A stretch of DNA of 64,000 nt from Oscillospiraceae bacterium (GTDB lineage Bacteria > Bacillota > Clostridia > Oscillospirales > Acutalibacteraceae): contig CADAMO010000001.1 of assembly GCA_902788995.1 (NCBI GenBank), positions 8,746-72,745 of the forward strand. The letters are read 5' to 3'. Each line of letters opens with the position of its first letter. Position 1 is the first letter of the stretch. Under the pieces are notes generated by a model. It was not told where the DNA came from. It made no database searches and was given only the letters and a program-made list of their open reading frames with translations. This document shows, in pieces, positions 26,569 to 52,857 of this stretch. The position numbers and the translations under genes were made by a program.

Positions 26569-28089
26569 ATGATGATAATGCGATATATGAAAAAACTGAC
26601 GGCGCTGCTGCTGTGCGCCGCGCTGCTGTTTGCCTGCTGTGTGCCGGCCTTCGCAGCGGATGCGCTGCCCGAGAGCGAGCACGACTATGCGAACAATCTG
26701 GAACAGCGTTGGGAGTACACCTATCCCGGCGAAGTCAAGGGCCTGTTCGTCACCTTTTCAGCGGATACGTGGGTGGAGGAGTACAGCGGATGGATCCGGA
26801 TCGACGACATCGTGGAGAACGGTGCGGTCACCGTCGGCGGCATGGAAAAGAACATCATTTTCCCCACGCTGAAAACCGGCGACGTGATCGTGATCTACGG
26901 TGAGAACGAACAGTACGTGGGCAGCTACCGGGGCGGCTCGCTGGCCGGCAAGACGGTTTTTGTGCCCGGCAGGTCTTTCTCCGTGGTGCTGATCACCGAC
27001 GGCTCGGTCACCGGCTACGGCTTCCGGGTGACGGCGGTGGAGCCCTGTCCGGACGACTACGTCCGGGAGATCACCTTCTGCCCCGGCGAAGGGCTCGAGC
27101 CGGTCACCGAAATCTTCACGGCGGATCAGACCGTGTATTTTGACGACCGGTATTATCAGCGCGACGGCCTTGCCTTCGTCGGCTGGTCCGCTGCTGAAAA
27201 CGGTCCTGTCGCCTTTGACGCCGACGGGGAAACCGTCGCCGCCGAGGTGCCCGCCACGCTTTACGGCGTGTGGGTCCCGCTGGCGCTGGGACGGGAGGAG
27301 GTCTTCTCCTTCTATAATTCAAGCTGGTATTTTGACGTGGACGATCAGGACCACTACTATATGACCGCGGAGGATTACCGCGCCATGCAGGAAAACCTGT
27401 TCAAAAACTTCGGCGTCGGACCCTATCCCACCCCCGTGGTCTCCATCGTGCTGGCAACCTACCGGGACTGGGATTTCGCCGGGTCCTGCTACGGCATGTC
27501 GGTGGTGACGGCGCTGCAGCACTACGGGCTGATCGATATCCTGCCCATGCAGAACGCCGCCTGCATGAACGACATGCAGCCGGACGAGGCGCTGATCAGC
27601 CTCATCAACTATTACCAGACCCAGACGGCCACCAGCTTTCCGGCGGAAAACAAGGCGCTGGTCAAGGGTTCGCCCAACATGCGCCAGCAGTTCCGCGACC
27701 TGTACCGCACCGTATCCGGGGGAAACATCGTGATCCTGACCTACTTCCGCGAGGGCATGAAGGAGATCACCGAGGCGCACGTGATCCTGCTGACGGGCTG
27801 CTACACCACGGCGGAGGGCGATCTGGCGTTTATCGTTTACGACTGCAACTCCGGCGACTATGAATCCGGCTGGTATGACGAGGTGTTCCGCGTGCCGGCG
27901 GGCGGCGACGCGGCGGTCTACGACGGCGACGTCATTGACGCGTTTTTCTGGACCGACGATTTCAGCCGCTTCCAATCCTTTGATATCAATAAAAAAGGCA
28001 CCCCGCTGGCGTGGTACCTTTCCTACTTCCGGCACGTGATCGAGGTGCTGGTCTCGTTTTTCCGGATGCTGAGCAATATCGGGAAATGA
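26569..28089 (+). CDS. Secreted protein with Listeria-Bacteroides-type repeat and a papain-like Cys/His motif
   Basis: Signal peptide ..CCVPAFA/ADA. FVGWSAAENGPVAFDADGETV repeat. FAGSCYGMSVV .. EAHVILLTGCY .. YDCNSGD resembles a Cys-His-Asp/Asn peptidase core. Start could be 26572 or 26578. Confidence 0.6.
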   Translation: MMIMRYMKKLTALLLCAALLFACCVPAFAADALPESEHDYANNLEQRWEYTYPGEVKGLFVTFSADTWVEEYSGWIRIDDIVENGAVTVGGMEKNIIFPTLKTGDVIVIYGENEQYVGSYRGGSLAGKTVFVPGRSFSVVLITDGSVTGYGFRVTAVEPCPDDYVREITFCPGEGLEPVTEIFTADQTVYFDDRYYQRDGLAFVGWSAAENGPVAFDADGETVAAEVPATLYGVWVPLALGREEVFSFYNSSWYFDVDDQDHYYMTAEDYRAMQENLFKNFGVGPYPTPVVSIVLATYRDWDFAGSCYGMSVVTALQHYGLIDILPMQNAACMNDMQPDEALISLINYYQTQTATSFPAENKALVKGSPNMRQQFRDLYRTVSGGNIVILTYFREGMKEITEAHVILLTGCYTTAEGDLAFIVYDCNSGDYESGWYDEVFRVPAGGDAAVYDGDVIDAFFWTDDFSRFQSFDINKKGTPLAWYLSYFRHVIEVLVSFFRMLSNIGK

Positions 28090-28094
28090 GAAAA

Positions 28095-28129
28095 GATGAA
28101 AGATGAAAGATGAGAGATGAGAGATGAGA
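28095..28129. repeat. Heptad array, left arm of cassette I1
   Basis: GATGAAA GATGAAA GATGAGA GATGAGA GATGAGA, five tandem 7-mers starting 6 nt after the stop at 28087-89. Confidence 0.9.
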
Positions 28130-28131
28130 GC

Positions 28132-28217
28132 CGGAGCGCGGGTCTCCAGTGGAGACCTCTGCCGAAGGCAGAAGCGTCGACCGAGGCGGCAGCCGAGACC
28201 CTGCGGCCGGCGTTTTA
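28132..28217 (+). repeat. Conserved structured element R1, copy B (with closing stem)
   Basis: Core 28138-28200 is 59/63 identical to copy A. GCCGG..GCG..GGGTCTC at the 5' end can pair with GAGACCC..GCG..CCGGC at the 3' end. A GNRA hairpin ATGGGC-GAAA-GCCCAT follows at 28226-28241. Confidence 0.7.
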
Positions 28218-28246
28218 TAATGGGTATGGGCGAAAGCCCATCCGTT

Positions 28247-28279
28247 TTTCATCATTCCGCTTTCATCTTTCCTCTTTCG
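28247..28279. repeat. Heptad array, right arm of cassette I1
   Basis: TTTCATC ATTCCGC TTTCATC TTTCCTC TTTCG.., complementary in register to the left arm (12-nt perfect GAAAGATGAAAG match). It ends at the tcdA stop codon. Confidence 0.85.
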
Positions 28280-28987
28280 TTAACGTCCGATCAGGGCGTT
28301 GACCACATACTCCGCGATGCGCAGGCCTGCGGCGGAGGGAATAAAACTGATGCTGGACGGGGGCGTTTTGCCTCCGTCTTCTTTGATATCGTACTGCGGC
28401 GGCGCCGGGGGATCGGGGGAGTAGAGCACCGTGACCTTTTTCAGCCCCGCCTCTTTATATTTCCGGCGCATCACCCGGCACAGGGGGCAGTATTCCGTCT
28501 GGTTGATGTCGGCGATGCGGAAGCCGTCGGACCGCAGCTTCCGGCCCGTGCCCATGGCGGCGATCAGCGGAACGTTCTCCGCCGCGCATTTCACCGCGAT
28601 GGCGGTCTTGGCCCTCGTGTCGTCGATGGCGTCCACACAGAAGTCGTAGGACCCTTCAAAAAAGCCGTCAACGTTTTCCGGCGTCACAAAGGCGGCCGCC
28701 GTGCGCACGGCGCAGTCCGGGGCGATGTCCAGCACCCTGGCGGCGGCCACGTCGGTTTTGTGCTGCCCTACGGTGGAATGCAGCGCGTAGAGCTGCCGGT
28801 TGATGTTGGAGAGGGCCACCGTGTCGCCGTCCACCAGCGTCAGCGCGCCCACGCCCGCCCGGGCCAGCGCCTCCACCACGTAGGAGCCTACGCCCCCCAG
28901 ACCGAAGACGATCACGCGGGCGCGCAGCAGCTTGTTCAGATTGTCCTCGCCCAGCAGGGCGGCGGTGCGGCGGTGTTCCTCTTTCAT
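28280..28987 (-). CDS. tcdA: tRNA threonylcarbamoyladenosine dehydratase (ThiF/E1-like)
   Basis: RVIVFGLGGVGSYVVEALARAGVGALTLVDGDTVALSNINRQ and the TcdA/CsdL-like length. Confidence 0.85.
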   Translation of the reverse strand: MKEEHRRTAALLGEDNLNKLLRARVIVFGLGGVGSYVVEALARAGVGALTLVDGDTVALSNINRQLYALHSTVGQHKTDVAAARVLDIAPDCAVRTAAAFVTPENVDGFFEGSYDFCVDAIDDTRAKTAIAVKCAAENVPLIAAMGTGRKLRSDGFRIADINQTEYCPLCRVMRRKYKEAGLKKVTVLYSPDPPAPPQYDIKEDGGKTPPSSISFIPSAAGLRIAEYVVNALIGR

Positions 28988-30591
28988 TGCGCGGCCTCCT
29001 CCGTCACCCGTTCCCGGAAGGCCAGGAACCGTTCGTTGTCCATGGGGTAACAGGTGAAGCTGATCTCGCCCAGCTCTTCTTCAATGACCTTGAGAACGTG
29101 TTCCCGGGAGGTCTTCGCCTCCAGCGCCTTCAACGCGGCCACGTCCTGAAGGGCGTCGAAGAACACCTTCTGCCGCAGGGAGGGCAGCGGCTCGCCGTCT
29201 TTGCCGGGGTAGACCACGAAGGCGTCCCCCGCCGGGAAGGCCCCTCCCGCGTCCGTCTCTTTGAAGGGATCCACGGGGCGGCGGGAGAGCTGCGTATAAT
29301 AGAAGTTATACCCCCACTGCAAAAAGCCGTCGCAGTCATACCGGTACAGCAGCGTGCCGAGAATGCGGTTGCGGATGGAGGGGAAGGCGATGAAGCGGTT
29401 GGGCAGCTCGTCGTTGTACTGCCCGCAGCAGTAATAGGTCCAGAGCTTGGGCACGTTGCCCGCAAAGGTTGGCGCCGCCTGAAGGCTGGGCACCGGCGTG
29501 CCGATCAGCCCCTCTTTGTAGAAATCATAGTCGGAGATGGCGTCGATGTGCTCGTAGGCGCGAAAGTATTCGTGCAGCGTGGCCGCGGTGCGGCGGTAGC
29601 GGGGCAGGTCCTTCAGCCCCGGCTCATCCGAGCAGTGGACGAGGCAGCGGTCCGTGATCCCTTTTTGGTCGGTATAGTCTTTGAACGCTGCGCCGAACTG
29701 CCGCAGAAAGCTGGTGTACCCCTGTGAAACGGAGTCGTTCTCCCAGCCGAAAATACGGCGGTAGCCTGCGGAGGTCTGCGCCATGATCTTCGGCGCGTGG
29801 CGCGCCCCCCACTGGGTGAAGAAATGGGAGATCTCGAAATACGATATCCCGCAGCGGCGCGCCGTGTCGATCCAGCGGTCCAGCTTGTCAAAGCCGAAGG
29901 TGTAGGTATAGCCCTTTTTGGTTACGTCCACCAGCTGTACGGTGGGGCGCTCGCCCCCTTCCTCCGTATCCAGCGGCGGCGTGAATACGGGCGTCAGCAG
30001 CACGTTGACCCCGTGGGCGGCGGCGTTGCGCATGAAGCTCTCCACGATCCGCCAGTAGTCCTCGCTGAAAACCTCCACGCCGTAATAGGTCGCAAGACAA
30101 TCGGAATGGAACCAGTTGACGTGGCGCAGCGTCTGGGGCGGCAGCGCCGTCGGCGAGACCTTGACGGCCGCCTTTGCGCAGACGGTCTCTGTCCCCTCCG
30201 CCGCCGTCAGCGTCACGGCGTGGTCGCCCGCCTTTTCGCCGGTGAATTCCGCCCACAGCACGGCGGGCACCCCGGCTTTGACCGTCAGCTCCCCCTCAAA
30301 GGGCGTCAGCAGGTCGGGATAGTCGCCGCTTTTTCCTTCGTTCAACAGGGTGCAGTTGCGGGCGTTTTCATAGATCGCCAGCCCCACGGGCACCTCCTGC
30401 ACCGCAAAAAGGCGGCAGGGGAGCGGGCTGTCGGCATTGACCGTCAGACGGACGTCTTCCTCCGAAACGAAGACGAACTGCAGGCTGCCGCGTTCCCCCC
30501 GCAGCAGCGCAAGACGCCCATGGGGAGCCGGCAGCGGCGCGCCGGGAAAAATTTTTTCAAGTGAAGACAGAATTGTTACCCGAACGGACAT
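28984..30591 (-). CDS. DUF4091 domain protein (putative glycoside hydrolase-like)
   Basis: ATG at 30591 preceded by GGGAGGGG. Overlaps tcdA by 4 nt. The family call is from overall sequence recollection. The listed start at 30672 lacks an SD. Confidence 0.6.
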   Translation of the reverse strand: MSVRVTILSSLEKIFPGAPLPAPHGRLALLRGERGSLQFVFVSEEDVRLTVNADSPLPCRLFAVQEVPVGLAIYENARNCTLLNEGKSGDYPDLLTPFEGELTVKAGVPAVLWAEFTGEKAGDHAVTLTAAEGTETVCAKAAVKVSPTALPPQTLRHVNWFHSDCLATYYGVEVFSEDYWRIVESFMRNAAAHGVNVLLTPVFTPPLDTEEGGERPTVQLVDVTKKGYTYTFGFDKLDRWIDTARRCGISYFEISHFFTQWGARHAPKIMAQTSAGYRRIFGWENDSVSQGYTSFLRQFGAAFKDYTDQKGITDRCLVHCSDEPGLKDLPRYRRTAATLHEYFRAYEHIDAISDYDFYKEGLIGTPVPSLQAAPTFAGNVPKLWTYYCCGQYNDELPNRFIAFPSIRNRILGTLLYRYDCDGFLQWGYNFYYTQLSRRPVDPFKETDAGGAFPAGDAFVVYPGKDGEPLPSLRQKVFFDALQDVAALKALEAKTSREHVLKVIEEELGEISFTCYPMDNERFLAFRERVTEEAAQ

Positions 30592-30776
30592 AAAATCCCC
30601 TCCCGTGTCTGATTTTGTCGGAAATATCTCAATTGAAAAGGGTTGTTCATCAATAAAATACAACAAATTCACAGATTATGCAAATAGTTTTTAACTCTTT
30701 TTCAAAAACGGAAAAGTGCACAAAAAAAGCGAAAAAAAATCTATGTTCCGCCCGCTTTGCCACGGGGGCAAAGCTG

Positions 30777-30805
30777 TTGACATTGCGCCGGAAATCATTT
30801 ATAAT
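30777..30805 (+). promoter_or_regulatory. Consensus sigma-A promoter
   Basis: TTGACA (30777-82), 17-nt spacer, TATAAT (30800-05), 47 nt upstream of ATG 30853. Confidence 0.75.
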
Positions 30806-30852
30806 AACCATGAATAAGAATACTGTTTTTTATAAAACAGGAGGTGCATGGA

Positions 30853-32232
30853 ATGAAAAAAATCCTATCCCTGCTGCTGGCTGCCGTCATGATGTTCGGC
30901 GTTCTGCCGGTGGCAGTGCTGGCGGCGGACGCCGCGCCGGTGGAAATCAACGCCGAAACGTATGCGGACAGCGCTTCCGTTACGCTGGGCGGCGGTAAAA
31001 ACTATAAGCTGCTCGCGGGCGAGCGGGCCGTGATCGAGGCCGGCCAGACCTGGACGGTCAGCGCCGGTTCCACGCTTTACGTGTACGGTTATCTCGACGT
31101 CAAGGGCACGCTGACCGTCAACGGTTACGTGACCGCCATCGACAGCGGCGAGGTGACCGCGAAATGCTGGTCCGACGACAACGGCGTCACCTATCAGTAC
31201 GGCAAGATCGTCAATTCCGCCAACGTCTGCGGCAACGAGACGGAGACGGCCAAGCGTTATTTTGCGGAGGTCTATATCCCCGCCGTAACGAAATATGCGG
31301 GCTTCAGCGACGCGTCCCATAAGCTGCGGGTCAGATACCTCACGTCCAGAACGGGCAGCGAGTTCGACTACCTCCTTTCCGATCTGTATTATGAGCGCCT
31401 GCAGAGCATGCCCGGCGACAACGATCCCCGTGAGCCCAAGTGGTATTTCGCCGACGTCTATTCCTCGGGAGATTACAATGCGTCGACCGGTATGCTGCGG
31501 GTCCCGCTGAACCAGTATCTGTATCTGACGTTTGATTTCCTGGCGGGCGGCGTCCCCACGAAAAAATACGACGGCGACAGAATGGCGATCCTCTTCAACC
31601 GCGCCGCCATCACGTCTGAACAGGGCGTCTGCACCCGTCTGATCGATTCTGCCGGCGCAGTCGATTTTCTGCCCAAGGCGCTTCTCGGGGTCTCAGGCGC
31701 TTCTTATGAAACGTGGAAGGATAGTTATTTTCTGCGTCAGGAGCGGATCTATATCCCCACCGGCGAGGGTTATTCCGCTTTCGGCGTCAACGGCGAGATC
31801 AGCGCGGACGATCAGACGGTGCGTCTCAACTACGGCGACGAGTTCCTGTTCCGGGTGACGATCGACGACAAGTATTCCGATTCGGCCTATTCCGTCTATC
31901 TGGTGCAGAGCTACCGCTGGAATGAGCGCAACCATGAGGATACGCTGGAAGCGCTGGCGGATGAGATCTATATTGACGACGCCGGCAATCCCCAGCATTT
32001 CGTCTGGAAGTTTGAGGAATATAAGGACGGCGCGCAGCAGAAGGCATATGTTGATCCCTACGGCGTTTACCACATTGCCGAGGTGGACGACGAATACACC
32101 ATCGTGGTGACGGGCGTGGCCAGCAACGACGCCATTTCCCTTTCCGCCAATATCATGGATACTATCCGCAACATTCTCAACGCCATCAAACAGTTCTTTG
32201 AGCGCGTCCGTCAGATGCTCGGCCTTGCCTGA
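30853..32232 (+). CDS. Secreted protein of unknown function (paralog 1) with C-terminal amphipathic helix
   Basis: AGGAGG lies 8 nt before ATG 30853. Signal peptide ..LPVAVLA/ADA. Shares IYIPTGEGY.., ..YGDEFLFRVTIDD.. and the C-terminal IMDTIRNILNAIKQFFERVRQML segment with the next gene. Confidence 0.85.
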   Translation: MKKILSLLLAAVMMFGVLPVAVLAADAAPVEINAETYADSASVTLGGGKNYKLLAGERAVIEAGQTWTVSAGSTLYVYGYLDVKGTLTVNGYVTAIDSGEVTAKCWSDDNGVTYQYGKIVNSANVCGNETETAKRYFAEVYIPAVTKYAGFSDASHKLRVRYLTSRTGSEFDYLLSDLYYERLQSMPGDNDPREPKWYFADVYSSGDYNASTGMLRVPLNQYLYLTFDFLAGGVPTKKYDGDRMAILFNRAAITSEQGVCTRLIDSAGAVDFLPKALLGVSGASYETWKDSYFLRQERIYIPTGEGYSAFGVNGEISADDQTVRLNYGDEFLFRVTIDDKYSDSAYSVYLVQSYRWNERNHEDTLEALADEIYIDDAGNPQHFVWKFEEYKDGAQQKAYVDPYGVYHIAEVDDEYTIVVTGVASNDAISLSANIMDTIRNILNAIKQFFERVRQMLGLA

Positions 32233-32279
32233 TCGGGCAGACGGATCATACAATTGATTATATTATGGAGGCTAATAAA

Positions 32280-33443
32280 ATGAAAAAAGTTATATCTGTA
32301 TTTCTGGCGGTTCTGATGATCGCCTGCTGCGTGCCGGTTTCGGTCTTTGCGGCTTCCTCTTCGGAGACCTTTAACGCCAGCGCGAACTTTACCTCTTCCA
32401 ATCAGCTTTTGTCTGACGTGGAATATATTATTCCCAATGGCGTCACCATGACCGTCCCGTCCAATCTGACCCTGTATATCCCTGCGCATGCCCGTCTGAC
32501 GGTCAGCGAGGGCGGCAAACTGAACGTGCTGGGCTCCATCGTGATCATGGATTTCGGCGAGCTGTATGCCGCCGGTATTATTGACCACGGCAGCAATATC
32601 GAGGTGGCCAAAAATGCGGATAACGCGGCGGCGATGGTGCAGATGCGCTATCCCGATCTGAACGACGACGCTGTAAAGCTGGCCGACAAAATCACCGTCA
32701 AGTTCAGCTATGACGGTGCGGAGGAACAGACGGTTCCGGTGGGCGGCGGCTCCTATTATGTCCCGCTGAACAAGGAGATCAAGATCGACGCGCACATTAT
32801 CGAGCCGACGGCGAATCTTCCTGCCAGCCAGCAGCGCGACAAGTTTGACGATTCTCTGCTGAAGATCAAGTTCAATAACGTGGGCCTTTCCTATGTGGCC
32901 GGTGCCAAGGCGGATACCGGCTATTTCACCACGACGGCCACCACCGGCGGCGATATCACCTTTGCCAAGTGGACCAACGATAACGACTTCCTGACCACCA
33001 AGCGCATCGTTCTTCCCTCCGGCGAGGGCTACGAAGTGCTGCCCCGCTTCCCCGATAAGGTGCAGAGAACGGAAGACGGCACCATCGTCGTCAAATACGG
33101 CGAGCCCTTCTCCTTCTACGTGGATCTGGATGAAGCCTATGATATGTCCAACTATGAGGTCTATATCTACAACGGCTACGGCTGGCTGAATCTCGGCGAA
33201 GAGAATCAGGAGACCGGCGATCTCGAAATCGGCAAGCTCCGCGCGGAGCCGGACGCCAACGGCTACTTCAACGTCTCCCAGGTGACGGGCGACCTCACCA
33301 TCTCCGTGCAGGGCGTCATGAAGAACGCCACCATCAACCTGATCGGTAACCTGCTGGAGACCTTCAGAAACATCTTCAATATGCTCAAGGAATTCATCGA
33401 GAGCCTGAAGGATCTGTTCAGCGGTTTTTCCAACAACGGTTAA
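32280..33443 (+). CDS. Secreted protein of unknown function (paralog 2) with C-terminal amphipathic helix
   Basis: GGAGG lies 9 nt before ATG 32280. Signal peptide ..VPVSVFA/ASS. IVLPSGEGY.., ..YGEPFSFYVDLDE.., C-terminal LIGNLLETFRNIFNMLKEFIESLKDLF. Confidence 0.85.
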   Translation: MKKVISVFLAVLMIACCVPVSVFAASSSETFNASANFTSSNQLLSDVEYIIPNGVTMTVPSNLTLYIPAHARLTVSEGGKLNVLGSIVIMDFGELYAAGIIDHGSNIEVAKNADNAAAMVQMRYPDLNDDAVKLADKITVKFSYDGAEEQTVPVGGGSYYVPLNKEIKIDAHIIEPTANLPASQQRDKFDDSLLKIKFNNVGLSYVAGAKADTGYFTTTATTGGDITFAKWTNDNDFLTTKRIVLPSGEGYEVLPRFPDKVQRTEDGTIVVKYGEPFSFYVDLDEAYDMSNYEVYIYNGYGWLNLGEENQETGDLEIGKLRAEPDANGYFNVSQVTGDLTISVQGVMKNATINLIGNLLETFRNIFNMLKEFIESLKDLFSGFSNNG

Positions 33444-33741
33444 GTGAAGAAACAGCTGTGCAATAGGACAGGATGAAGCGCAAGCAAGGCGCGCGGCTGC
33501 ATTCGTGCGGCGATGCCTTCCATCTCATGTCCGTCAGCGCAAGCTGCAATACGCCCTGCCGCCACCCGGCGGCGGGGCGATTTCCGTTTTCAGTCCTCTT
33601 TAAGGTGCTTTTAAGCGCCCTGTGCCATGATGAAACCGCAGCGGACCGGCGACGGTCAGAAAGCCGGTCGGCGAAATCGTTTCGCGCTGCGCGGCGCGCA
33701 TCCGGCTGATCCGGCGCCGCCAATAAAATAGAAAAAACAGC

Positions 33742-33770
33742 TTGATTTTACAGTAATAATAATATATAAT
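33742..33770 (+). promoter_or_regulatory. Sigma-A promoter
   Basis: TTGATT (33742-47), 17-nt spacer, TATAAT (33765-70) in an AT-rich island, 96 nt upstream of ATG 33867. Confidence 0.7.
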
Positions 33771-35702: not shown

Positions 35703-35737
35703 TTCAGTGGGAAGTCGTCAGTCGGAAGTCGGTAGTC
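35703..35737. repeat. Heptad array, left arm of cassette I2
   Basis: TTCAGTG GGAAGTC GTCAGTC GGAAGTC GGTAGTC. Confidence 0.85.
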
Positions 35738-35863
35738 TGCAAACCGATTCCCCGTTCTGATGAATAAGTCCGCTGAACGAAAGAAGTTGAGCATGAGCCA
35801 TTGAAAATCACAGTCGGAAAGATACTATTCCGTTACGGATGAGATACGGAGTTTGCCCATAGG

Positions 35864-35891
35864 GACTTCCGACTTCCGACTGATGACTGAC
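35864..35891. repeat. Heptad array, right arm of cassette I2
   Basis: GACTTCC GACTTCC GACTGAT GACTGAC. Its reverse complement matches the left arm in register (about 23/28). Confidence 0.85.
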
Positions 35892-37386: not shown

Positions 37387-37389
37387 CAG

Positions 37390-37424
37390 GCAATAGGCAG
37401 TAGGCAATAGGCAATAGGCAATAG
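37390..37424. repeat. Solo heptad array I3
   Basis: GCAATAG GCAGTAG GCAATAG GCAATAG GCAATAG, starting 4 nt after the stop at 37384-86. No complementary arm seen nearby. Confidence 0.9.
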
Positions 37425-37472
37425 GGATGTGCCGTCTTGCTGTTGCCGGCGTTTCAATAGCTACGCGTTGCG

Positions 37473-45368: not shown

Positions 45369-46955
45369 TCAACCGTTCAGCGCCGCGAAGTTCTTTTTAT
45401 TGACCTTATACAGCTCCTTGAACACGGCGTACTGCCTGTCATAGACGGCCTTGTTGGCGGCGTTGGGGGTGTAGGTCTTCACCACGGGGATCAGCTTCTT
45501 GGCGTCCTTGAAGCCGTCGATCAGGCCCAGGCCTACTGCGATGGTGACGGCCGCGCCCACCGCGCCCACGTTCTGGGGTTTGTCAACGGTCTCCACCTTC
45601 TTGCCCAGCACGTCGCTGAGGATCTGGCAGGTGGCGTAAGAGAGCGCGCCGCCGCCCACAAAGCGGATCGTCTCGGAGGACTTGACCTTCTTGTCCTCCG
45701 CCTCCATGAACCAGCGCAGGTGATAGCACACGCCCTCGATGACGGCGCGGATCATGTCGCTCTTGCCCGTCTCCAGCGACAGGTTGAAGAAAATGCCTCT
45801 GGCGTTGGGGTCCTCAAAGGGACAGCGGTTGCCGTGGAGCCACGGGGTGAAGATCACGCCGTTGGAACCGGCGGGCACCTTGTCGATGATCTCCGTCATA
45901 TAGTCGTAAAGGCTGGTGTATTCGGTCTCAAAGCTGGCGGCCACGTCCTCTTTCTTGAGGTAGATGTTGATTTCGTCCAGCGCCAGGTGGTCCTTGACCC
46001 ACTCCAGGCACTTGCCGGCGGTTTCCAGCTCGCCGAAGTAGTTGAATTTGCCCTGATCCGCGCCGACTACCGCGGCGATCATGGCGGAAGCGTCCACGAT
46101 GCTCTTTTCCACCACCGTGGAGACCCAGCCGGAGGTGCCGCAGTAGATGTGGGTGTCGCCGGGCGCTACCGCGCCGGCGCCCACGCCGATCAGCGAAGCG
46201 TCGCCGCCGCCGCCGAATACGGCGGTGCCGACCTTCAGGCCCAACTCCTTTGCCTGGGCTTCCCGCAGGCCGCCCACCACGTCGGTGGATCTCACCAGCT
46301 CCGGCATGTGGGCCGGGTTCACGCCCAGCGTTTTGCACAGGCTTTCGGACCAGCAGTCGTGCTTCAGGTCGTACAGCAGCGCGCCGAAGGCGGAATCCCG
46401 CGTCATCACGCAGCGGCCGGTCATGCGGGCGATCAGGTATTCCTTCACGTCCAGCCATTTATAGATCTTTTTGTAGTTTTCGGGTTCGTGGTTTTTGACC
46501 CAGTTGTATTTCCAGACCGGGTCCTTGACGGAGGCCGCCACCGCGCCGGTGATGGCCAGTGATTTCAGCAGGATCGGAACGCTGGCGCCCGCCACCTGAA
46601 TGCCGTGGGCGATGCCCTTTTTCAGCTCCTCCCGGGCCCGCTGATCCATATAGCTGAAGGCGCGGCGGATGGCGTTGCCCTCCTTGTCCACCAGCACAAG
46701 GCCCTGCATCTGCGAGCAGAAGGAGATGCCCTCGATCCGGTCGGGGGAGACGCCCGCGTCGGCGACGGCCTTCTTTGACGTGTCGCAGACGGCTTCCCAC
46801 CATTCGTCGGGGTCCTGCTCCGCGCCGCCGTCCGGGAAGACGTAGAGCGGATAGCCCTCGGAGGCGCTGCCCAGCAGCTTGATGGTATCCGAAATCTCAA
46901 ACACACAGGTCTTGACGCCCGTGGTGCCGATATCAAATGTGATGGCGTACTTCAT
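45369..46955 (-). CDS. FGGY family carbohydrate kinase (xylulokinase-like)
   Basis: YAITFDIGTTGVKT N-terminus and C-terminal FVGGGA.. motif. FGGY length. Confidence 0.88.
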   Translation of the reverse strand: MKYAITFDIGTTGVKTCVFEISDTIKLLGSASEGYPLYVFPDGGAEQDPDEWWEAVCDTSKKAVADAGVSPDRIEGISFCSQMQGLVLVDKEGNAIRRAFSYMDQRAREELKKGIAHGIQVAGASVPILLKSLAITGAVAASVKDPVWKYNWVKNHEPENYKKIYKWLDVKEYLIARMTGRCVMTRDSAFGALLYDLKHDCWSESLCKTLGVNPAHMPELVRSTDVVGGLREAQAKELGLKVGTAVFGGGGDASLIGVGAGAVAPGDTHIYCGTSGWVSTVVEKSIVDASAMIAAVVGADQGKFNYFGELETAGKCLEWVKDHLALDEINIYLKKEDVAASFETEYTSLYDYMTEIIDKVPAGSNGVIFTPWLHGNRCPFEDPNARGIFFNLSLETGKSDMIRAVIEGVCYHLRWFMEAEDKKVKSSETIRFVGGGALSYATCQILSDVLGKKVETVDKPQNVGAVGAAVTIAVGLGLIDGFKDAKKLIPVVKTYTPNAANKAVYDRQYAVFKELYKVNKKNFAALNG

Positions 46956-46976
46956 TTTCTTCTCCTTTTTTATGAT

Positions 46977-47131
46977 GGTAGCGCGGCACCTCAGTGCCGC
47001 TGACGATAGATGTAACTGCTATACAGGTTATCGTTTGGAACCGGCAGCTTTAAACTCACGGTCTGCCAGAGGGGGACAATGCGTAAAACAGATTGTTATT
47101 GCCAGAAGCGGCACTGAGGTGCCCCGCTACC
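46977..47131 (+). repeat. REPIN-like doublet M3
   Basis: Left unit perfect. Right unit GCGGCACTGAGGTGCCCCGCTACC (1 mismatch). AAACAGATTGTT lies 10 nt before the right unit. Ends 5 nt from the recR stop. Confidence 0.9.
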
Positions 47132-47136
47132 GGGGA

Positions 47137-47733
47137 TCAAAGCGCTTGCCGTCCCTGAATCGCCCGTGACAGCGTGACGGAATCCGCATATTGCAGATCG
47201 CTGCCCACCGGCAGCCCGTAGGCCAGCCTTGTCACCTTCACACCCAGGGGCTTTAACATCTTGGAGATATACATGGCGGTCAGTTCGCCCTCAACGTTGC
47301 TGCCCGTGGCCATGATGACCTCTTCCACGCCCCCTTCGTTGACGCGGGCCAGCAGCTCTTTCAGGGTGATATCCTCGGGGCCTACCTCGTCCAAGGGCGA
47401 AATCACCCCGTGCAGCACGTGGTAGACGCCGCCGTACTCCTTGGTGTTCTCAATGGCCATCAGGGATTCCACGTTTTCCACCACGCAGATCAGGCCGTGC
47501 TTGCGATTGACGTTTTTGCAGACGGGGCACAGCTCTTCGTCTGTCAGGTTGCAGCAGACGGGGCAGCGGTGGATCTTTTCCCCCGCCTCGCGGATGGTCT
47601 CCGCCAGCTCCTCCACCTCGTTCTTGGGCAGTTCCAGCACGTAGAAGGCGAGCCGCATGGCGGTCTTCGCCCCGATGCCGGGCATGCGGCGGAACTGCTC
47701 CGTCAGCTTTTCAAATGAAACGGCGCTGTCCAT
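47137..47733 (-). CDS. recR: Recombination protein RecR
   Basis: LPGIGxKTA-type helix-hairpin-helix (MPGIGAKTAMRLAF), C4 zinc finger CPVCCNLTDEELCPVCKN, Toprim region. Confidence 0.93.
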   Translation of the reverse strand: MDSAVSFEKLTEQFRRMPGIGAKTAMRLAFYVLELPKNEVEELAETIREAGEKIHRCPVCCNLTDEELCPVCKNVNRKHGLICVVENVESLMAIENTKEYGGVYHVLHGVISPLDEVGPEDITLKELLARVNEGGVEEVIMATGSNVEGELTAMYISKMLKPLGVKVTRLAYGLPVGSDLQYADSVTLSRAIQGRQAL

Positions 47734-47736
47734 AAA

Positions 47737-48081
47737 TCAAAGGCCCAGCCCGCCGAGCCCGGGGATATTGAGACCGCCCGTCAGGCCGTTCATTCTGGTC
47801 TCCATGGTGTCGTTGGCCTTGCGGATGGCTTCGTTGAGGGAGGCGATCAGCAGGTCTTCCAGCATCTCCACGTCCTCGGGGTCCACCACTTCGGGCTGGA
47901 TTTTGATCGCTTTCACCTCGTGCTTGCCGGTGACGGTCACTTCCACCGCGCCGCCGCCGGAGCTGGCGGAAAACTCGGTGTTTTCCACTTCCTCCTGCAC
48001 GTTGCTCATCTCTTCCTGCATCTTCTGGATCTTCTGCATCATGTCGTTGCGGGAGGGCTGGTTGGGGATTCTTGCTTTCAT
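47737..48081 (-). CDS. ybaB: Nucleoid-associated protein YbaB/EbfC
   Basis: MQKIQKMQEEM..GGGAVEVTVTGKHEV..I.PEVVDPEDVEMLEDL, in dnaX-ybaB-recR synteny. Confidence 0.92.
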   Translation of the reverse strand: MKARIPNQPSRNDMMQKIQKMQEEMSNVQEEVENTEFSASSGGGAVEVTVTGKHEVKAIKIQPEVVDPEDVEMLEDLLIASLNEAIRKANDTMETRMNGLTGGLNIPGLGGLGL

Positions 48082-48096
48082 ATCGGTTACTTCCTT

Positions 48097-50109
48097 TTAC
48101 TCTACTTTGATATTGTATTTCCTGCCGAGCGTTTCCAGCGCGGCTTCACTGACGTATTTGGAGAGATAGGCGGGGTTGATAAAGGTCTTGATCTTGTTTT
48201 CCCCCAGCCGGATGAGGATGGTGTTGCCCGCGATGGAGGCGGTGGAATCCGTCAGCTGGCCGATCAGCGGGGCGAACCGCTTTTCCGTGCCGAGGATGAT
48301 CTGCATCCACGTGCGGCCGTCGATGGGCGTCGCCGTGGGCTCATCCGTCAGCACCTGCGTCTGCGGGGCGGCGGAGGGTCCGCCTGCCGCATCGAAGGGG
48401 AGCGGTACCGTGGCGTCCCCGGCCTGCGGGCTTCCGGCGTGTTCCTGCATAAAGGCGTCAAAGTCAAATCCGTCGTCCGGGGGGGGCGGCGGGTTGCTGC
48501 CGGCGGAGGACCCGCTTCCGGCGTGTTCGCTCATGAACGCGTCAAAATCAAAGGGCTCGTCGTCCGTCTCTTCCGTTCCGGCGGCGGCGAATCTGTCCGC
48601 AAAGCTGCCGGAGGAGGGGCGGTCAGCGGCGAAACCGGAGAAGGAGGGTCGCTGTTCACGGCTGTCGCGTTTTGGCGTCGGAACGGTCGCTTCCCCGAAA
48701 GGCTCGTCCGGCGGCGGCGCGTCGTCAAAGGGCGGTGCGTCGTCAAAGGGGGGCGCCTCGTCGAAGGGCGGTATATCGTCAAAGGGGGGCGCGTCGTCGG
48801 AAAAAAGCGGAATCGTCGCGTCGTTTTCGGAGAGTTCCGCCGGTGCGGCGACGGGGGCGGGGGCCGGCTTTGGCGGGGCGGCCTGCTGCCGCGGCGAGGG
48901 CGTTTCAACGGGCGTTTGAGCAACGGGCGTTTCGGCGGGGGAGAAGGCGACCGCGCCGCTTTTCAGCCGGGCGATCTCTTTTTCCAGCGCGGCCACCCTT
49001 GCGGTCAGCGCGGTGACGGAAACGTCGGTCTCCGGGCGGCACAGGCGGATCAGCGCCATTTCCGCCTCAATGCGGCGGTTCTGGGTGCGGCGGATGGCCT
49101 CCGACGCGGCGGCCAGCACGCCCAGCGCGTACAGCACGTATTCCTGGGTAAACGCTGCGGCGGAGGTTTTGATCCGCTCCAGCTCTTCGGCGGTGCAGAC
49201 GATCAGGTTCTCCGGGTGGGCCACCGTCTTCACGATCAGAAAACTGCGGAACCGGTCGATCAGCTCCACGCAGAGGCGCTCCGTATCGCAGGAGGCCTTG
49301 TGCAGCTCGTCTAAAATGGAAAGGCACCGGGCCGTGTCCTTGGCGGCGACGGCGTCCATCAGGTCGTAAATATATTCGCGGTTCATCAGACCCGCGGAGG
49401 AGGAGACCACGTCCACGGTCACGTCGTTTGCCACGGAAAGGCAGCGGTCCAGCAGCGAGAGCGCGTCCCGCATACCGCCGTCCGCAATGCGGGCGATCAG
49501 CACCGCCGCGTCGTAATCCAGCGACGCGTTTTCCGCCTTGGCGATCTCCACCAGCCGGTCCGCGATGCAGGCGGGCTCGATCCGGCGGAAGTCAAACCGC
49601 TGGCAGCGGGAGAGGATCGTGGAGGGGAGCTTGTGCACCTCGGTGGTGGCCAGAATGAACTTCACGTGCTCCGGCGGCTCTTCCAGCGTTTTCAGCAGCG
49701 CGTTGAAGGCCGCAATGGAGAGCATGTGGACTTCGTCGATGATATAGACCCGGTAGGTGGCCTGGGAGGGGGTGAAGTTGACCTCGTCCCGCAGCAGGCG
49801 GATATCGTCCACACCGTTGTTGCTGGCGGCGTCGATCTCCACGATATCCAGCACGGAGCCGTTGTCGATGCCGCGGCAGATCTCGCACTCGTTGCAGGGG
49901 TCGCCGTTCACCGGGTGCAGGCAGTTGACCGCCTTGGCGAATATTTTCGCGCAGGTGGTTTTGCCCGTCCCCCGCGAACCCGTGAACAGGTAGGCGTGGG
50001 CCAGGCGGTTTTCCCGGATCTGATAGGAGAGTGTCTTGGTGACCTGGGGCTGGCCGATCACGTCGGCAAACACCTGCGGCCGCCATTTACGGTAGAGGAC
50101 GCGGTACAA
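48097..50109 (-). CDS. dnaX: DNA polymerase III subunit gamma/tau
   Basis: TTG start. LYRKWRPQVF, GSRGTGKTT (Walker A), zinc module CLHPVNGDPCNECEICRGI. Long low-complexity linker with internal repeats. Confidence 0.93.
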   Translation of the reverse strand: MYRVLYRKWRPQVFADVIGQPQVTKTLSYQIRENRLAHAYLFTGSRGTGKTTCAKIFAKAVNCLHPVNGDPCNECEICRGIDNGSVLDIVEIDAASNNGVDDIRLLRDEVNFTPSQATYRVYIIDEVHMLSIAAFNALLKTLEEPPEHVKFILATTEVHKLPSTILSRCQRFDFRRIEPACIADRLVEIAKAENASLDYDAAVLIARIADGGMRDALSLLDRCLSVANDVTVDVVSSSAGLMNREYIYDLMDAVAAKDTARCLSILDELHKASCDTERLCVELIDRFRSFLIVKTVAHPENLIVCTAEELERIKTSAAAFTQEYVLYALGVLAAASEAIRRTQNRRIEAEMALIRLCRPETDVSVTALTARVAALEKEIARLKSGAVAFSPAETPVAQTPVETPSPRQQAAPPKPAPAPVAAPAELSENDATIPLFSDDAPPFDDIPPFDEAPPFDDAPPFDDAPPPDEPFGEATVPTPKRDSREQRPSFSGFAADRPSSGSFADRFAAAGTEETDDEPFDFDAFMSEHAGSGSSAGSNPPPPPDDGFDFDAFMQEHAGSPQAGDATVPLPFDAAGGPSAAPQTQVLTDEPTATPIDGRTWMQIILGTEKRFAPLIGQLTDSTASIAGNTILIRLGENKIKTFINPAYLSKYVSEAALETLGRKYNIKVE

Positions 50110-50148
50110 GGCGGGACAGTCCTTTCTGTGGGGAGGAAGTTTTTTCCT

Positions 50149-50183
50149 GAAAGTTGAAAGTTGAAAGATAAAAGTTGAAAGTC
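50149..50183. repeat. Solo heptad array I4
   Basis: GAAAGTT GAAAGTT GAAAGAT AAAAGTT GAAAGTC, 40 nt upstream of the dnaX start. No convincing complementary arm. Confidence 0.9.
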
Positions 50184-50247
50184 GGAAAAACGCTGCGCGT
50201 TTTTGATTTTATAAAGTGATGTGTTTCACTTTTATAAATAAAATTTT

Positions 50248-50374
50248 GCCTCTGTCACACGGCGTGCAGGCGGACTGTGTCGCACGGGCTGACCGCTTAA
50301 TGCTGCTCGGTTCCCCGCCTGACATGGTTCGCGGCGCTCCGTCGCACAGGACCAACACGCCGCATGACAGAAGC
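50248..50374 (-). ncRNA. ffs: Signal recognition particle RNA (core helix 5/8)
   Basis: The minus strand reads ..GUCAGGCGGGGAACCGAGCAGC.., matching the conserved domain IV GUCAGG..GGAA..AGCAGC. It is closed by a 19-bp helix GCUUCUGUCAUGCGGCGUG / CACGCCGUGUGACAGAGGC (with G-U pairs). It sits in the canonical position upstream of dnaX. Confidence 0.8.
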
Positions 50375-50403
50375 AAAATTCAAGTCTTTTTCACTTGGTA
50401 ATC

Positions 50404-50432
50404 ATTATACTACTTTTCCTGTGGTTTGGCAA
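50404..50432 (-). promoter_or_regulatory. Sigma-A promoter of the SRP RNA gene
   Basis: Minus strand TTGCCA (50432-27), 17-nt spacer, TATAAT (50409-04). Confidence 0.65.
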
Positions 50433-50592
50433 GTATTTTTTTAACCTTTATTTTATTTATTTTATTTTATTTTATCCCGGAGGATTGCGCGATTTGAATC
50501 AATACGTTGAAAAATGTCGAGACCCCGCAGCACGCAGCCTCAGCTGCGTTTTCAACGCAAGTGTTTCTTCGCGTATCACGCGCCTTGCGTCG

Positions 50593-50756
50593 TTACTGCT
50601 CCACCAATTAATACTTGAAGATTTCTGCTTGTCTAAACGCCGCAATACGGCGTCAGAAATCCTCGACAGGGGACAGCCTGTCTTGCGGTTTCTTCCTTGT
50701 CTTGCGACGTTTATCCGGCGCATAAATGATTCACGATTAAATTGGTGGAGCAGTAA
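50593..50756. repeat. 17-bp perfect inverted repeat enclosing about 130 nt of hairpin-rich sequence
   Basis: TTACTGCTCCACCAATT (50593-50609) / AATTGGTGGAGCAGTAA (50740-50756), extendable to 20 bp with one bulge. Confidence 0.8.
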
Positions 50757-50780
50757 ATCGGAACTGCGCTGTAACACTAT

Positions 50781-50817
50781 GAAAAAAGAAAAAAGCCGAA
50801 AGGCGAACCCTCGGCTT
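50781..50817 (-). terminator. rpmB intrinsic terminator
   Basis: Minus strand AAGCCGA-GGGUUCGCCUU-UCGGCUU followed by UUUUCUUUUUUC. Confidence 0.8.
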
Positions 50818-50841
50818 ATATTCTTCGTTCTGTTGATCGGA

Positions 50842-51030
50842 TCAGACCGCTCTGGTGACCTTACCGGAACGCAGGCAGCGTGTGCAGGCATAAACTCTGC
50901 AGGGGGAGCCGTTGACGATCGCCTTGACTCTCTTCACGTTGGGCTTCCAGGTTCTGTTGGATCTTCTGTGGGAATGGGAAACCTTGATACCGAACTTCAC
51001 GTCTTTTCCGCAAAAATCGCATTTTGCCAT
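50842..51030 (-). CDS. rpmB: 50S ribosomal protein L28
   Basis: MAKCDFCGKDVKFGIKVSHSHRRSNRTWKPNVKRV.. Confidence 0.93.
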   Translation of the reverse strand: MAKCDFCGKDVKFGIKVSHSHRRSNRTWKPNVKRVKAIVNGSPCRVYACTRCLRSGKVTRAV

Positions 51031-51078
51031 TTGGAGCGCACCTCCTTTGATTACTGGACTAATAAATCAGCAGAAAAC

Positions 51079-51107
51079 ATAATAACAGATTCCCGCCGTA
51101 ATTGCAA
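51079..51107 (-). promoter_or_regulatory. Sigma-A promoter of rpmB with A-rich UP-like tract
   Basis: Minus strand TTGCAA (51107-02), 17-nt spacer, TATTAT (51084-79). Preceded by an A-rich run (plus-strand T-runs 51111-51146). Confidence 0.65.
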
Positions 51108-51157
51108 GCTTTTTTTTGATTTTTTTGGTTTTTTTTCGTTTTTTCTGCGTTGCGCCC

Positions 51158-52396
51158 TCATGAAAGCCGGTGGATGAACAATCCGCTGAGCAGCTTCGGC
51201 TCAAACCACGTGGATTTCGGGGGCATGATCTCGCCCGCGTCCGCAATGGCCATCAGCTCGTCGAGGGAGGTGGGGTACATGGAAAAGGCGAGAACCATAT
51301 CCTCCCGGCAGCGCTTTTCCAGCTCTGAAAGGCCACGGATGCCGCCCACGAAGTCGATGCGCTTGTCCGTTCTCGGGTCACCGATGCCGAAGATCGGCTC
51401 GTTGACCAGCTTTTGCAGCAGGGAAACGTCAAGGCTGCCCACCGCGTCGGATTCGTCGGCAAGGCCCTCTTTGAGCGTCAGGGCGTACCACTGCTCTTTG
51501 TAGAACATACCGAAGGTGTGGCGGGCGGCGGGCTTCACCGGCTTATCGCTCTTTTCCATGGCGAACACTTCGCCCAGCCTGCCGAACAGCGCTTCGTCGG
51601 AAAGGCCGTTCGTGTCCTTCAGCAGGCGGTTGTAGTCGAGGATCTTCAGCTCGTCCGCGCGGAAGTACACCGCCAGAAAGAAGTTGAACTCCTCTTCCCC
51701 CGTATAGCCGGGGTTGGCCGCGCGGCGTTTCAGCGCCACCTTGACGGCGGAGGCCGCCCGGTGGTGGCCGTCGGCGATATAGAGGGATTCCACCGCCCGG
51801 AAACCGTCTGTCACGGCGGCGATGTCGGCCGCGTCGTCGATAACCCATACGGTGTTTTGCACGTTTCCTTCGCTGACGAAGTCGTACTCCGGCGCAAGGG
51901 CGGTCACTTTGTCGATCACCGCGTCAATGACGCCGCTGCGGCGATAGGCCAGAAAGATGGGGCCGGTGTTGGCGTCGCAGGTATCCACGTGGCGGATCCG
52001 GTCCTCCTCCTTGTCGGCACGGGTCAGCTCGTGGCGCTTGATAACGCCGTTCAGGTAGTCGTCCACGGAGGCGCAGCCCACGATGCCCGTCTGGCACACG
52101 CCGTTCCACTGCTGGCGGTAGATATACAGCTTCGGCACGTCCTCTGTTAAGCAGACGCCCTCGTCGGAGAGCTTTTGCAGGTTTTCCGCCGCCTTGGCGT
52201 AGACCGCGTCGGAGTAAAGATCGACGCCCTCCGGCAGATCGACCTCGGCCTTATCCACGTGGATGAAGGACAGGGGATTGCCTTGCACCTTGACCCGCGC
52301 CTCGGCGGAATTCATGACGTCGTAGGGCAGCGCCGCCACCTGCGCGGCGTATTCTTTTTTCGGGCGCACGGCCCGAAAAGCGCGAATGATAGACAT
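51158..52396 (-). CDS. DUF1015 domain protein
   Basis: MSIIRAFRAVRPKKEYAAQVAALPYDVM.. N-terminus and about 410 aa length typical of DUF1015. Confidence 0.8.
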   Translation of the reverse strand: MSIIRAFRAVRPKKEYAAQVAALPYDVMNSAEARVKVQGNPLSFIHVDKAEVDLPEGVDLYSDAVYAKAAENLQKLSDEGVCLTEDVPKLYIYRQQWNGVCQTGIVGCASVDDYLNGVIKRHELTRADKEEDRIRHVDTCDANTGPIFLAYRRSGVIDAVIDKVTALAPEYDFVSEGNVQNTVWVIDDAADIAAVTDGFRAVESLYIADGHHRAASAVKVALKRRAANPGYTGEEEFNFFLAVYFRADELKILDYNRLLKDTNGLSDEALFGRLGEVFAMEKSDKPVKPAARHTFGMFYKEQWYALTLKEGLADESDAVGSLDVSLLQKLVNEPIFGIGDPRTDKRIDFVGGIRGLSELEKRCREDMVLAFSMYPTSLDELMAIADAGEIMPPKSTWFEPKLLSGLFIHRLS

Positions 52397-52426
52397 GGGG
52401 TAAGTCTCCTTTTCGGTAAATGTTAA

Positions 52427-52460
52427 AATGCGGAATTCGGAATGAGGAATTCGGAATTAT
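52427..52460. repeat. Heptad array, left arm of cassette I5
   Basis: AATGCGG AATTCGG AATGAGG AATTCGG AATTAT. Contains the stop codon (52457-59) of the enclosed gene. Confidence 0.92.
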
Positions 52461-52804
52461 TTAGGTTGCGTTTTTGTGATAGAAGTCAATAATTTGATAA
52501 GCTCTTCGCAATTATAATACAGTGGTTCAAACGTTGATTTGTCAATGAAATCGCTTTCATACAGGAGTTCAAGCCAATAGGCAGTTTCATCTGCTTCTTT
52601 TAGTGCAATATTCATTTTTGAATAAAAGTCAGGTTTGCTTTGCCCTCTTTGCGCTTCACGGATATTTGCGCCGATGCTTGTGCCGCTTCGCAAAATCTGC
52701 TTTGATAATACGAATTCGTGTTCAACGCATAAATATCGGTATAAACGGATAATCTGAAGGGCAAACGCTTTGCTTTTATCTCTGACTGCATTATTGTAGA
52801 TCAT
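52457..52804 (-). CDS. Four-helix-bundle protein (23S rRNA intervening-sequence protein / Avd family)
   Basis: KSKAFALQIIRLYRYL..LSKQILRSGTSIGANIREAQRGQSKPDFYSKMNIALKEADETAYWLELL, the hallmark of this family. 21 G+C in the 60-nt line at 52501. Confidence 0.88.
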   Translation of the reverse strand: MIYNNAVRDKSKAFALQIIRLYRYLCVEHEFVLSKQILRSGTSIGANIREAQRGQSKPDFYSKMNIALKEADETAYWLELLYESDFIDKSTFEPLYYNCEELIKLLTSITKTQPK

Positions 52805-52823
52805 TTCAGACCCTTCCCTCTCA

Positions 52824-52857
52824 ATAATTCCGCATTCCGCATTCCGAATTCCGCATT
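52824..52857. repeat. Heptad array, right arm of cassette I5
   Basis: Reverse complement reads AATGCGG AATTCGG AATGCGG AATGCGG AATTAT, 32/34 identical to the left arm. Confidence 0.92.

Follow-up and report, generated by a model that had tools for sequence, protein, structure and literature searches.

A stretch of 64,000 nt from an uncultured Oscillospiraceae bacterium of the gut or rumen (Acutalibacteraceae, Oscillospirales; positions 8,746 to 72,745 of contig CADAMO010000001.1, assembly GCA_902788995.1), here called the window, contains intergenic arrays of tandem heptanucleotides, several of which form inverted pairs around a short cargo. We consider it probable that these arrays represent the arms, whole or as relics, at the termini of small insertion cassettes, which form a large family of the intervening sequence (IVS) type, a type known from 23S rRNA genes. 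One pair of arrays, I5, encloses a gene for a four-helix-bundle (4HB) protein and is a complete, foreign cassette (37% GC, against 62% in the adjacent genes) placed at the operon junction between a solute-binding-protein gene (SBP_bac_5, hereafter SBP) and a DUF1015 gene. Two further pairs, I1 and I2, are miniature versions of the IVS-type cassette that lack an open reading frame (ORF). The remaining two arrays, at 37388 and 50148, are arms without a partner (Table 1).

The arrays are real, as Tandem Repeats Finder (TRF) reported period 7 at every locus named in the original prediction. A scan of the window for arrays of at least four units with at least 80% self-match returned six of period 7, against 0.05 expected from dinucleotide shuffles, and none or one for each of the periods 4-6 and 8-15. 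A search of related genomes, which the original prediction had proposed, covered 1.21 Mb of DNA around the DUF1015 orthologue of 80 related species (L001-L080), the best of which has a DUF1015 protein with 90% amino-acid identity to that of the window. Here 32 arrays of period 7 with at least 3.8 copies were found, against at most eight of any other period; they occur singly and, in many cases, as close inverted pairs. Period 7 alone is enriched in both samples, instead of arrays of any period being equally frequent. Within the window every array is intergenic and several adjoin stop codons, as had been noted: I1 sits between two convergent stop codons, at distances of 4 nt and 0 nt from its arms, the 37388 array begins 1 nt past the stop of a 228-aa gene and the 5' arm of I5 begins 8 nt past the stop of the SBP gene. 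The genes next to the arrays are functionally unrelated to each other. On folding, the three inverted pairs form long stems (z = -5.4 to -7.9; -4.3 to -7.9 across all folded elements), in agreement with the earlier view of one family of elements in which inverted pairs surround a cargo. A lone CGGAATG at 23471, taken before as a hint of common origin, carries no such weight, since the window holds nine copies where 15.3 are expected, which is within chance. The other such hint, the ATTCCGC heptad common to I1 and I5, consists of one unit only.

In an Rfam scan of the window SRP RNA alone exceeded the gathering threshold and no rRNA was found; I1 gave no meaningful Rfam match at E <= 1. Intrinsic terminators were considered as an identity for the arms and ruled out: only the apical hairpin of I1 and a hairpin beside the 50148 array are terminator-like.

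Table 1. Arms, cargo and associated features of the heptad elements in the window.
Feature	Position	Strand	Sequence and context	TRF, period 7 (span; copies)	Basis
I1 arm	28094-28130		GATGAAA/GATGAGA, 5.3 units; 4 nt past stop of a 506-aa plus-strand gene	28094-28130; 5.3	
Repeat copy in I1 cargo	28138-28200		63 nt, 93.7% identical to 23506-23568		blastn
I1 apical module	28216-28243	-	GGATGGGC-TTTC-GCCCATACCCATTATA; terminator-like on plus strand		
I1 partner arm	28247-28279		TTTCATC-type, 4.6 units, degenerate; adjoins stop of a ThiF-family gene (28280-28987, minus)	28247-28278; 4.6	
I2 arm	35703-35737		AGTG GGA AGTC GTC AGTC GGA AGTC GGT AGTC, five cores	35706-35737; 4.6	
I2 cargo	35738-35863		126 nt, non-coding		
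I2 partner arm	35864-35891		GACTTCC GACTTCC GACTGAT GACTGAC; 23 nt before start of a DUF5058 gene	35864-35881; only 2.6 (by eye four units, reaching 35891)	
Single arm 37388	37388-37425	+	GGCAATA, 5.4 units, five AATA/AGTA cores	37388-37425; 5.4	
Single arm 50148	50148-50182	+	AGTTGAA-type, 5.0 units; between the SRP RNA gene (with terminator-like hairpin) and dnaX	50148-50182; 5.0	
I5 3' arm	52427-52458	-	reverse complement of 5' arm, 2 mismatches; 2-nt overlap with TAA stop	52427-52458; 4.6	
I5 cargo	52457-52804	-	gene for a 115-aa 4HB protein, 23S_rRNA_IVP / TIGR02436		profile matches
I5 5' arm	52826-52857	-	AATGCGG AATTCGG AATGCGG AATGCGG AATT; five ARTK cores, 32 nt	52827-52857; 4.4	sequence, TRF, fold

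A complete cassette and its counterparts elsewhere

In I5, 21 nt that include a purine-rich ribosome-binding site separate the 5' arm from the ATG of the 4HB gene. The 3' arm begins within the TAA of this ORF and ends 30 nt before the DUF1015 start codon. In its predicted fold the element is closed by a stem of about 36 bp with two mismatches (z = -6.4). Its protein matches Pfam PF05635 (23S_rRNA_IVP, E = 3e-30) and NCBIfam TIGR02436 ('four helix bundle protein', E = 1e-33), which bears out the proposal of a four-helix-bundle gene as cargo; the closest solved homologue is PDB 2RLD (E = 5e-35), an entry with five identical chains. Because most related species have just 10-60 nt between the SBP and DUF1015 genes and no element, I5 is regarded as an insertion. 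The same junction carries an ORF-less hairpin with AAGTCGG arms in a sister species (L001) and a cargo of about 130 nt between CCGAATT arms in a more distant species (L071); it has been struck in three lineages.

According to the original prediction no element class with this organisation had been described. The complete form has, however, the anatomy of a 23S rRNA IVS with an S23p ORF. The IVS of Coxiella burnetii is 428 nt long, contains an S23p ORF of the PF05635 type with three to four tandem GACAGAT heptamers upstream of it at the 5' end, their number differing between strains, and is closed by a 28-bp terminal stem that RNase III cleaves in vitro, with the mapped ends inside the stem (PMC4990558). 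Excision of IVSs by RNase III in Salmonella and Leptospira is cited in the same paper. I5 and the 23S rRNA IVSs have in common the terminal inverted repeats, a stem of about 30 bp around a PF05635-family ORF and a length of about 430 nt; I5 and the Coxiella element also both have tandem heptamers at the 5' end, adjacent to where the ORF starts. When rotated, the Coxiella heptamer reads GATGACA and is identical to the I1 unit GATGAGA at six of seven positions. Unlike the 23S IVSs, which interrupt helix 25 or 45 of 23S rRNA, the window elements lie between protein-coding genes; they have full five-core arrays as both arms, and ORF-less forms, single arms and forms with other cargo exist. The PF05635/TIGR02436 ORF is present in I5 and absent from I1, I2 and the single arms.

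The I5 protein has more than 8000 close homologues, and about 10,900 clusters at 50% identity were obtained (E <= 1e-3). A survey of 80 metagenomic loci with homologues 52-71% identical to it (L101-L180) left 72 loci at which both flanks could be analysed for a period-7 array of at least four units within 110 nt of the 4HB gene. Such an array was found upstream at 51 loci, downstream at 60 and on both sides at 45; none of the other periods between 4 and 12 reached the threshold, apart from one period-5 case. The association of arrays with 4HB cargo, which had been put forward as a check, is thus seen at 66 of 72 unrelated loci. At the metagenomic loci the arrays on the two sides of the gene are reverse complements of each other. 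Complementarity between the arms of one cassette has a median score of 24; when arms of different loci are combined, the score is 7. The median stem in 62 cassettes is 32 bp. Many cassettes have a 5' arm that adjoins the ATG and a 3' arm that overlaps the TAA stop.

Inverted arms around a 4HB gene were also found in Cyanobacteria, Chloroflexota, Bacteroidota and predicted phage contigs. All four cyanobacterial 4HB loci examined (from Nostoc punctiforme, Planktothrix and Euhalothece) have heptad arms, as do about 12 of 18 4HB loci on predicted viral contigs. Plasmid matches of the I5 protein come mostly from Nostoc and other cyanobacteria. The arms on an N. punctiforme plasmid use the I2 heptad (AAGTCGG) and those on a Chlorohelix plasmid the I1 heptad (GATGAAG), and plasmids of Planktothrix, Euhalothece and Bernardetia carry armed 4HB genes too. 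On plasmid pTS1 of Treponema saccharophilum (L194) the arrays next to the 4HB gene consist of 7-12 copies of CTCTCCG units, with a core that is not ARTK. One viral contig (L205) has 4HB arms of period 8 (AATTTGTA), which recall the octanucleotide paired sites of Geobacter metallireducens. Cassettes with a 4HB gene also lie between consecutive restriction or defence genes, in the order SNF2 helicase-4HB-DUF4391-4HB-N6_N4 methylase (L091-L100), helicase-4HB-N6 methylase (L196) and DISARM drmD-4HB-PglX (L197). Both 4HB genes of the SNF2-4HB-DUF4391-4HB-methylase operon have arms, and one of them uses the heptad GGAATTC, as does I5. At locus L091 the adjacent ORF calls extend through the heptad arms, so that the arms are annotated as coding. 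A TTAGGAG-type array of about five units (L091, 1287-1324) lies inside the called DUF4391 coding region and could be an in-frame arm relic or reflect a mis-called fused ORF.

Heptamer repeats have been reported piecemeal from other bacteria, among them the STRR heptamers of heterocystous cyanobacteria, reportedly described by Mazel et al. in 1990. Arrays of TAACTGA lie upstream of start codons in Beggiatoaceae, cyanobacteria and Bacteroidetes, and intergenic heptamers of two to six tandem units are often found directly upstream of start codons (PMC4679880). On the complementary strand TAACTGA corresponds to a unit of the AGTTATC type and so agrees with the ARTK core; the STRR and TAACTGA reports differ from the present elements in that they concern direct arrays, with one dominant heptamer per genome, and draw no link to an inverted partner or a 4HB gene. 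For the gene-adjacent heptamer repeats of Nostoc the role is called 'not very well worked out' (bioRxiv 10.1101/2022.06.06.494920). In G. metallireducens eight pairs of 'five tandem heptanucleotide repeats' on opposite strands and at variable distance were catalogued, together with octamer classes, and read as binding sites for a global regulator or for IHF/HU; the class 3 sites have the consensus MTYCTGA and include an example between proB and proA (PMC2700814). The class 3 pairs have the same architecture as I1, I2 and I5, and the terms 'S23', 'four-helix' and 'intervening sequence' are all absent from the text of that paper. Hence rRNA IVSs with S23p ORFs, the Coxiella heptamers, the heptanucleotide excess and the Geobacter pairs are already known. 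A statement that heptad arrays are general arms of 4HB cassettes was not found in a literature search that was not exhaustive; likewise, we found no description of the five-core ARTK grammar or of ORF-less derivatives with an apical module, although prior description is possible.

Grammar and inheritance of the arms

Read in the sense of the 4HB gene, the unit of the 5' arm has the consensus A-R-T-K-N-R-N. Position 1 is A in 95% of units, position 2 A in 80% and G in 18%, position 3 T in 95% and position 4 T in 73% and G in 26%; position 6 is A in 62% and G in 32%, and positions 5 and 7 are free. The typical arm is 32 nt long (median of 244 arrays; interquartile range 31-34) instead of the 35 nt first given, and can be written as (ARTKNNN)4ARTK, with 3-nt spacers in the four gaps between five 4-nt cores. 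Counts of in-phase cores show a sharp peak at five, the number present in 39 of the 62 5' arms and in 35 of the 62 3' arms. Period and length are the most conserved properties, as had been proposed; the companion claim, that the units are unrelated between loci, does not hold, given the common ARTKNRN consensus and the way in which the heptad tracks 4HB relatedness. By inspection the arrays of the window hold about five cores, of the types AATG/AATT in I5, GATG in I1, AGTC/AGTG in I2, AATA/AGTA at 37388 and AGTT at 50148. In I1 one arm has five cores and the other four or five degenerate ones; the counts for I2 are five and four.

Heptads agree within 1 nt in 79% of cassette pairs whose 4HB proteins are 70-80% identical and in 9% of pairs at 50-60% identity (rho = -0.22, p = 3e-21). 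Since the heptad follows the relatedness of the cargo, the arms are taken to be inherited with the cargo and to drift in concert. The same co-variation ruled out a scheme in which arms are made de novo from the target sequence. Mismatches between the arms were tallied in the 62 cassettes from L101-L180 (57 after removal of duplicates). The commonest, a G in the 5' arm opposite a T in the complement of the 3' arm, was seen 48 times and the reverse 19 times, an asymmetry that appears to reflect the variable T/G position of the core.

Short elements, single arms and other cargo

I1 and I2 have short, non-coding cargo between terminal inverted repeats, and related species have empty sites at the I5 junction and at the 50148 array; both traits are like those of MITEs (miniature inverted-repeat transposable elements) and REPINs. 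I2 begins 19 nt past the stop of a FabG-like gene. A six-frame hmmsearch with the family profile detected the I5 gene alone and no 4HB remnant in I1 or I2, so that neither can be recognised as a pseudogene. Full cassettes, too, have small GC tetraloop hairpins in the interval from arm to ORF, which fits the short forms being internally deleted derivatives. No direct repeats that could represent a target-site duplication were seen by inspection on the flanks of I1, I2 and I5, and the window holds no near-identical multi-copy set of elements. The closest functional analogues are REPINs and the Correia/nemis elements of Neisseria, the latter reportedly cut by RNase III once transcribed. These are likewise small, ORF-less inverted-repeat elements in intergenic or operon positions; in contrast to I1 and I2 they have fixed terminal sequences and target duplications, and neither tandem heptads nor a 4HB gene.

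The I1 cargo consists in part of a GC-rich 63-nt repeat with internal hairpins, whose second copy (23506-23568) is found in another intergenic region; possibly this is a further small mobile repeat that has become nested in I1. The apical module of I1 is common to ORF-less heptad hairpins of several other species, where it stands beside one arm. It follows the pattern GG-W-GGAA-GGGC-tetraloop-GCCC-TT..ACCC.ATT.TAT, and alignment revealed a compensatory change in its stem (ATGGGC/GCCCAT versus AAGGGC/GCCCTT). Copies were located at L018 3640-3685, L024 2132-2175, 14090-14132 and 16347-16389, L027 4730-4769 and L106 1893-1925. On the opposite strand the module resembles a TATAAT box followed by a hairpin and CCTCC.

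The size of the cargo in 167 inverted pairs, mostly from loci targeted through the 4HB gene, is bimodal, with one class of 350-450 nt (the ORF) and one of 20-150 nt, into which I1 and I2 fall; about 13 ORF-less pairs were found among the related genomes. A larger cargo of 1.3 kb lies at L032 (3212-4597) between GAATGCA arms (4.7 units and complement), with an extra ATTTTGC array. It encodes a DUF3990 (ART-like) protein, a 79-aa protein and a DUF3791 protein and resembles a toxin-antitoxin module. At none of about 200 loci, analysed as loci and not as whole genomes, was a transposase or recombinase associated with the arms.

For the 37388 array no partner arm was found within 6 kb. The 50148 array lies 38 nt upstream of dnaX and is missing from the sister species L001, in which the ffs-dnaX spacer lacks some 80 nt (50186-50260). 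Besides the heptad array, the extra spacer DNA contains two hairpins, one AT-rich and one that is terminator-like in both directions (50186-50204). A different repeat, of 18/36 nt (4.8 and 2.3 copies), lies within the C-terminal half of the dnaX coding region (48713-48799).

Polymorphism in presence or absence between strains, suggested as a further check, was not observed. No strain contig that spans I1, I2 or the 37388 array shows any difference in them, and the 50148 array is likewise unchanged in all four strain loci that include it. Within the species, variation is limited to the unit number of one I5 arm: the 5' arm is the same in the strain loci L081-L090, except for one contig that has two units instead of 4.4 (four whole units). 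Several strain contigs from several samples (L182-L184, L186, L187, L189, L190) end either 29 nt into the 37388 array or in the 63-nt repeat of I1, which suggests that these elements can break assemblies. In L086 (2845-3380) the 4HB cassette is identical but its surroundings differ: on the left is a 572-aa gene with an AGTGGTC array of its own at the stop, and on the right the SBP gene, inverted. This contig was not used as evidence of a second insertion site or of transposition; probably the inverted arms gave rise to a chimeric assembly, or to an inversion.

How the arms may act

The canonical element consists of a 32-nt 5' arm with five ARTK cores, an ORF of about 115 aa for the 4HB protein, often starting right at the arm, and a reverse-complement arm that often overlaps the stop codon. 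By analogy with the rRNA IVSs, for which cleavage has been demonstrated by experiment, the arms would pair into a stem of about 32 bp once a host transcript is made; RNase III would cut this stem and remove the insert from the host RNA, so that the element could be tolerated in rRNA genes and operons. As the window elements share the anatomy of the Coxiella IVS, their arms most likely pair and are cut by RNase III, although the structural assignment to IVS-type cassettes is stronger than the RNase III step. Period and length would be kept while the sequence varies if arms inherited with their cargo evolve in concert, through slippage and conversion of units, and are held at five ARTK cores.

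Several observations weigh against this reading. None of the elements found here is located in an rRNA gene. One 4HB gene (L077) lacks heptad arms, and the arrays that flank the 4HB gene of Treponema plasmid pTS1 are direct and not inverted. In the unbiased sample (the window and L001-L080) about 13 ORF-less pairs and about 20 single arms were counted but just two 4HB genes, and the DUF3990/DUF3791 cargo of L032 means that a 4HB gene is not obligatory and that the arms can carry other cargo. In a wobble-pair test for selection at the RNA level, G·U mismatches in the sense RNA were not favoured over A·C (30 versus 44, p = 0.13), which leans slightly against such selection. Finally, the mere need of a stem does not account for the conserved ARTK core.

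Some of these points would also suit an action at the DNA level. Here the arms would form hairpins or cruciforms in single-stranded DNA that are recognised and mobilised by an enzyme supplied in trans, as in the RAYT and REP/REPIN systems, and the RNA stem would be incidental. With no G·U bias between the arms, complementarity may indeed be kept in the DNA, and a core conserved beyond what pairing needs, the variety of cargo (including non-coding modules and the DUF3990/DUF3791 pair), the repeated use of the SBP-DUF1015 junction and the excess of ORF-less over ORF-bearing forms, much as MITEs and REPINs outnumber their autonomous partners, all speak in its favour. Nevertheless, we think it rather unlikely: the surveyed loci have yielded no transposase or recombinase, target-site duplications were not seen by inspection at I1, I2 and I5, the window is without a near-identical multi-copy set, and processing by RNase III has been shown experimentally for the stem of the homologous rRNA IVS (PMC4990558).

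A smaller probability still is given to cis-regulatory sites that bind a protein or modulate translation and are kept by the host, as proposed for the arrays of Beggiatoaceae (PMC4679880), Nostoc (10.1101/2022.06.06.494920) and Geobacter (PMC2700814). Single arms just past stop codons or upstream of start codons, the invariance of arrays among strains and a conserved core in a fixed number of five, which suggests a binding factor, would suit such a role. On the other hand, the arrays are missing at orthologous junctions of related species, the adjacent genes are unrelated in function, the arms are co-inherited with a foreign, low-GC cargo, and near 4HB genes pairing around the cargo predominates. 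Some single arms may nonetheless have come to affect regulation secondarily. Ordinary slippage microsatellites, possibly serving as phase-variation switches, are very improbable, despite the two-unit I5 arm of one strain, the strain-dependent unit number of the Coxiella IVS (PMC4990558) and the proposal of slippage for heptanucleotides, the most abundant long simple sequence repeats in repeat-rich bacterial genomes (Mrazek 2007, as cited in PMC4679880), as the arrays have narrow lengths (31-34 nt, mode five cores), pair as inverted repeats, conserve a core, are identical in the strain contigs that span I1, I2, 37388 and 50148, and lie in intergenic DNA outside reading frames.

Under our preferred reading, that of IVS-type cassettes, an ARTK core in five copies suggests recognition by a conserved factor, possibly a pentameric 4HB protein. 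Avd, the accessory protein of diversity-generating retroelements, is a member of the four-helix-bundle superfamily that also includes the I5 protein, and is said to be a homopentamer, as reported by Alayyoubi et al. in 2013. Avd differs in that it works with a reverse transcriptase and a template repeat; the gene tables of the P0001 and P0106 loci, the two screened, contain no reverse transcriptase gene. We tentatively raise a more speculative extension, which we hold to be rather doubtful: the five cores could form a read-out array for a homopentameric 4HB protein, in which each subunit reads one core and the single-stranded arm encircles the ring, much as RNA does in TRAP. The cassette would then be self-recognising and selfish, and ORF-less hairpins and single arms, including the STRR, TAACTGA and Geobacter sites, would be its non-autonomous progeny. 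If so, the 4HB protein would bind its own arms and control processing, translation or mobilisation, and the long-noted excess of heptanucleotide repeats in bacteria would be explained.

Bacterial heptanucleotide repeats have so far had no agreed origin or function. The present results tie these repeats, described piecemeal since 1990, to one large family of elements and may help to explain their excess. The formula (ARTKNNN)4ARTK provides a precise grammar for annotation, which matters as heptad arms mislead gene callers into extending ORFs through them. Furthermore, IVS-type elements are not confined to rRNA but are general inserts of operon junctions and defence operons, and a testable function can be offered for the large family of 'hypothetical four helix bundle proteins'.

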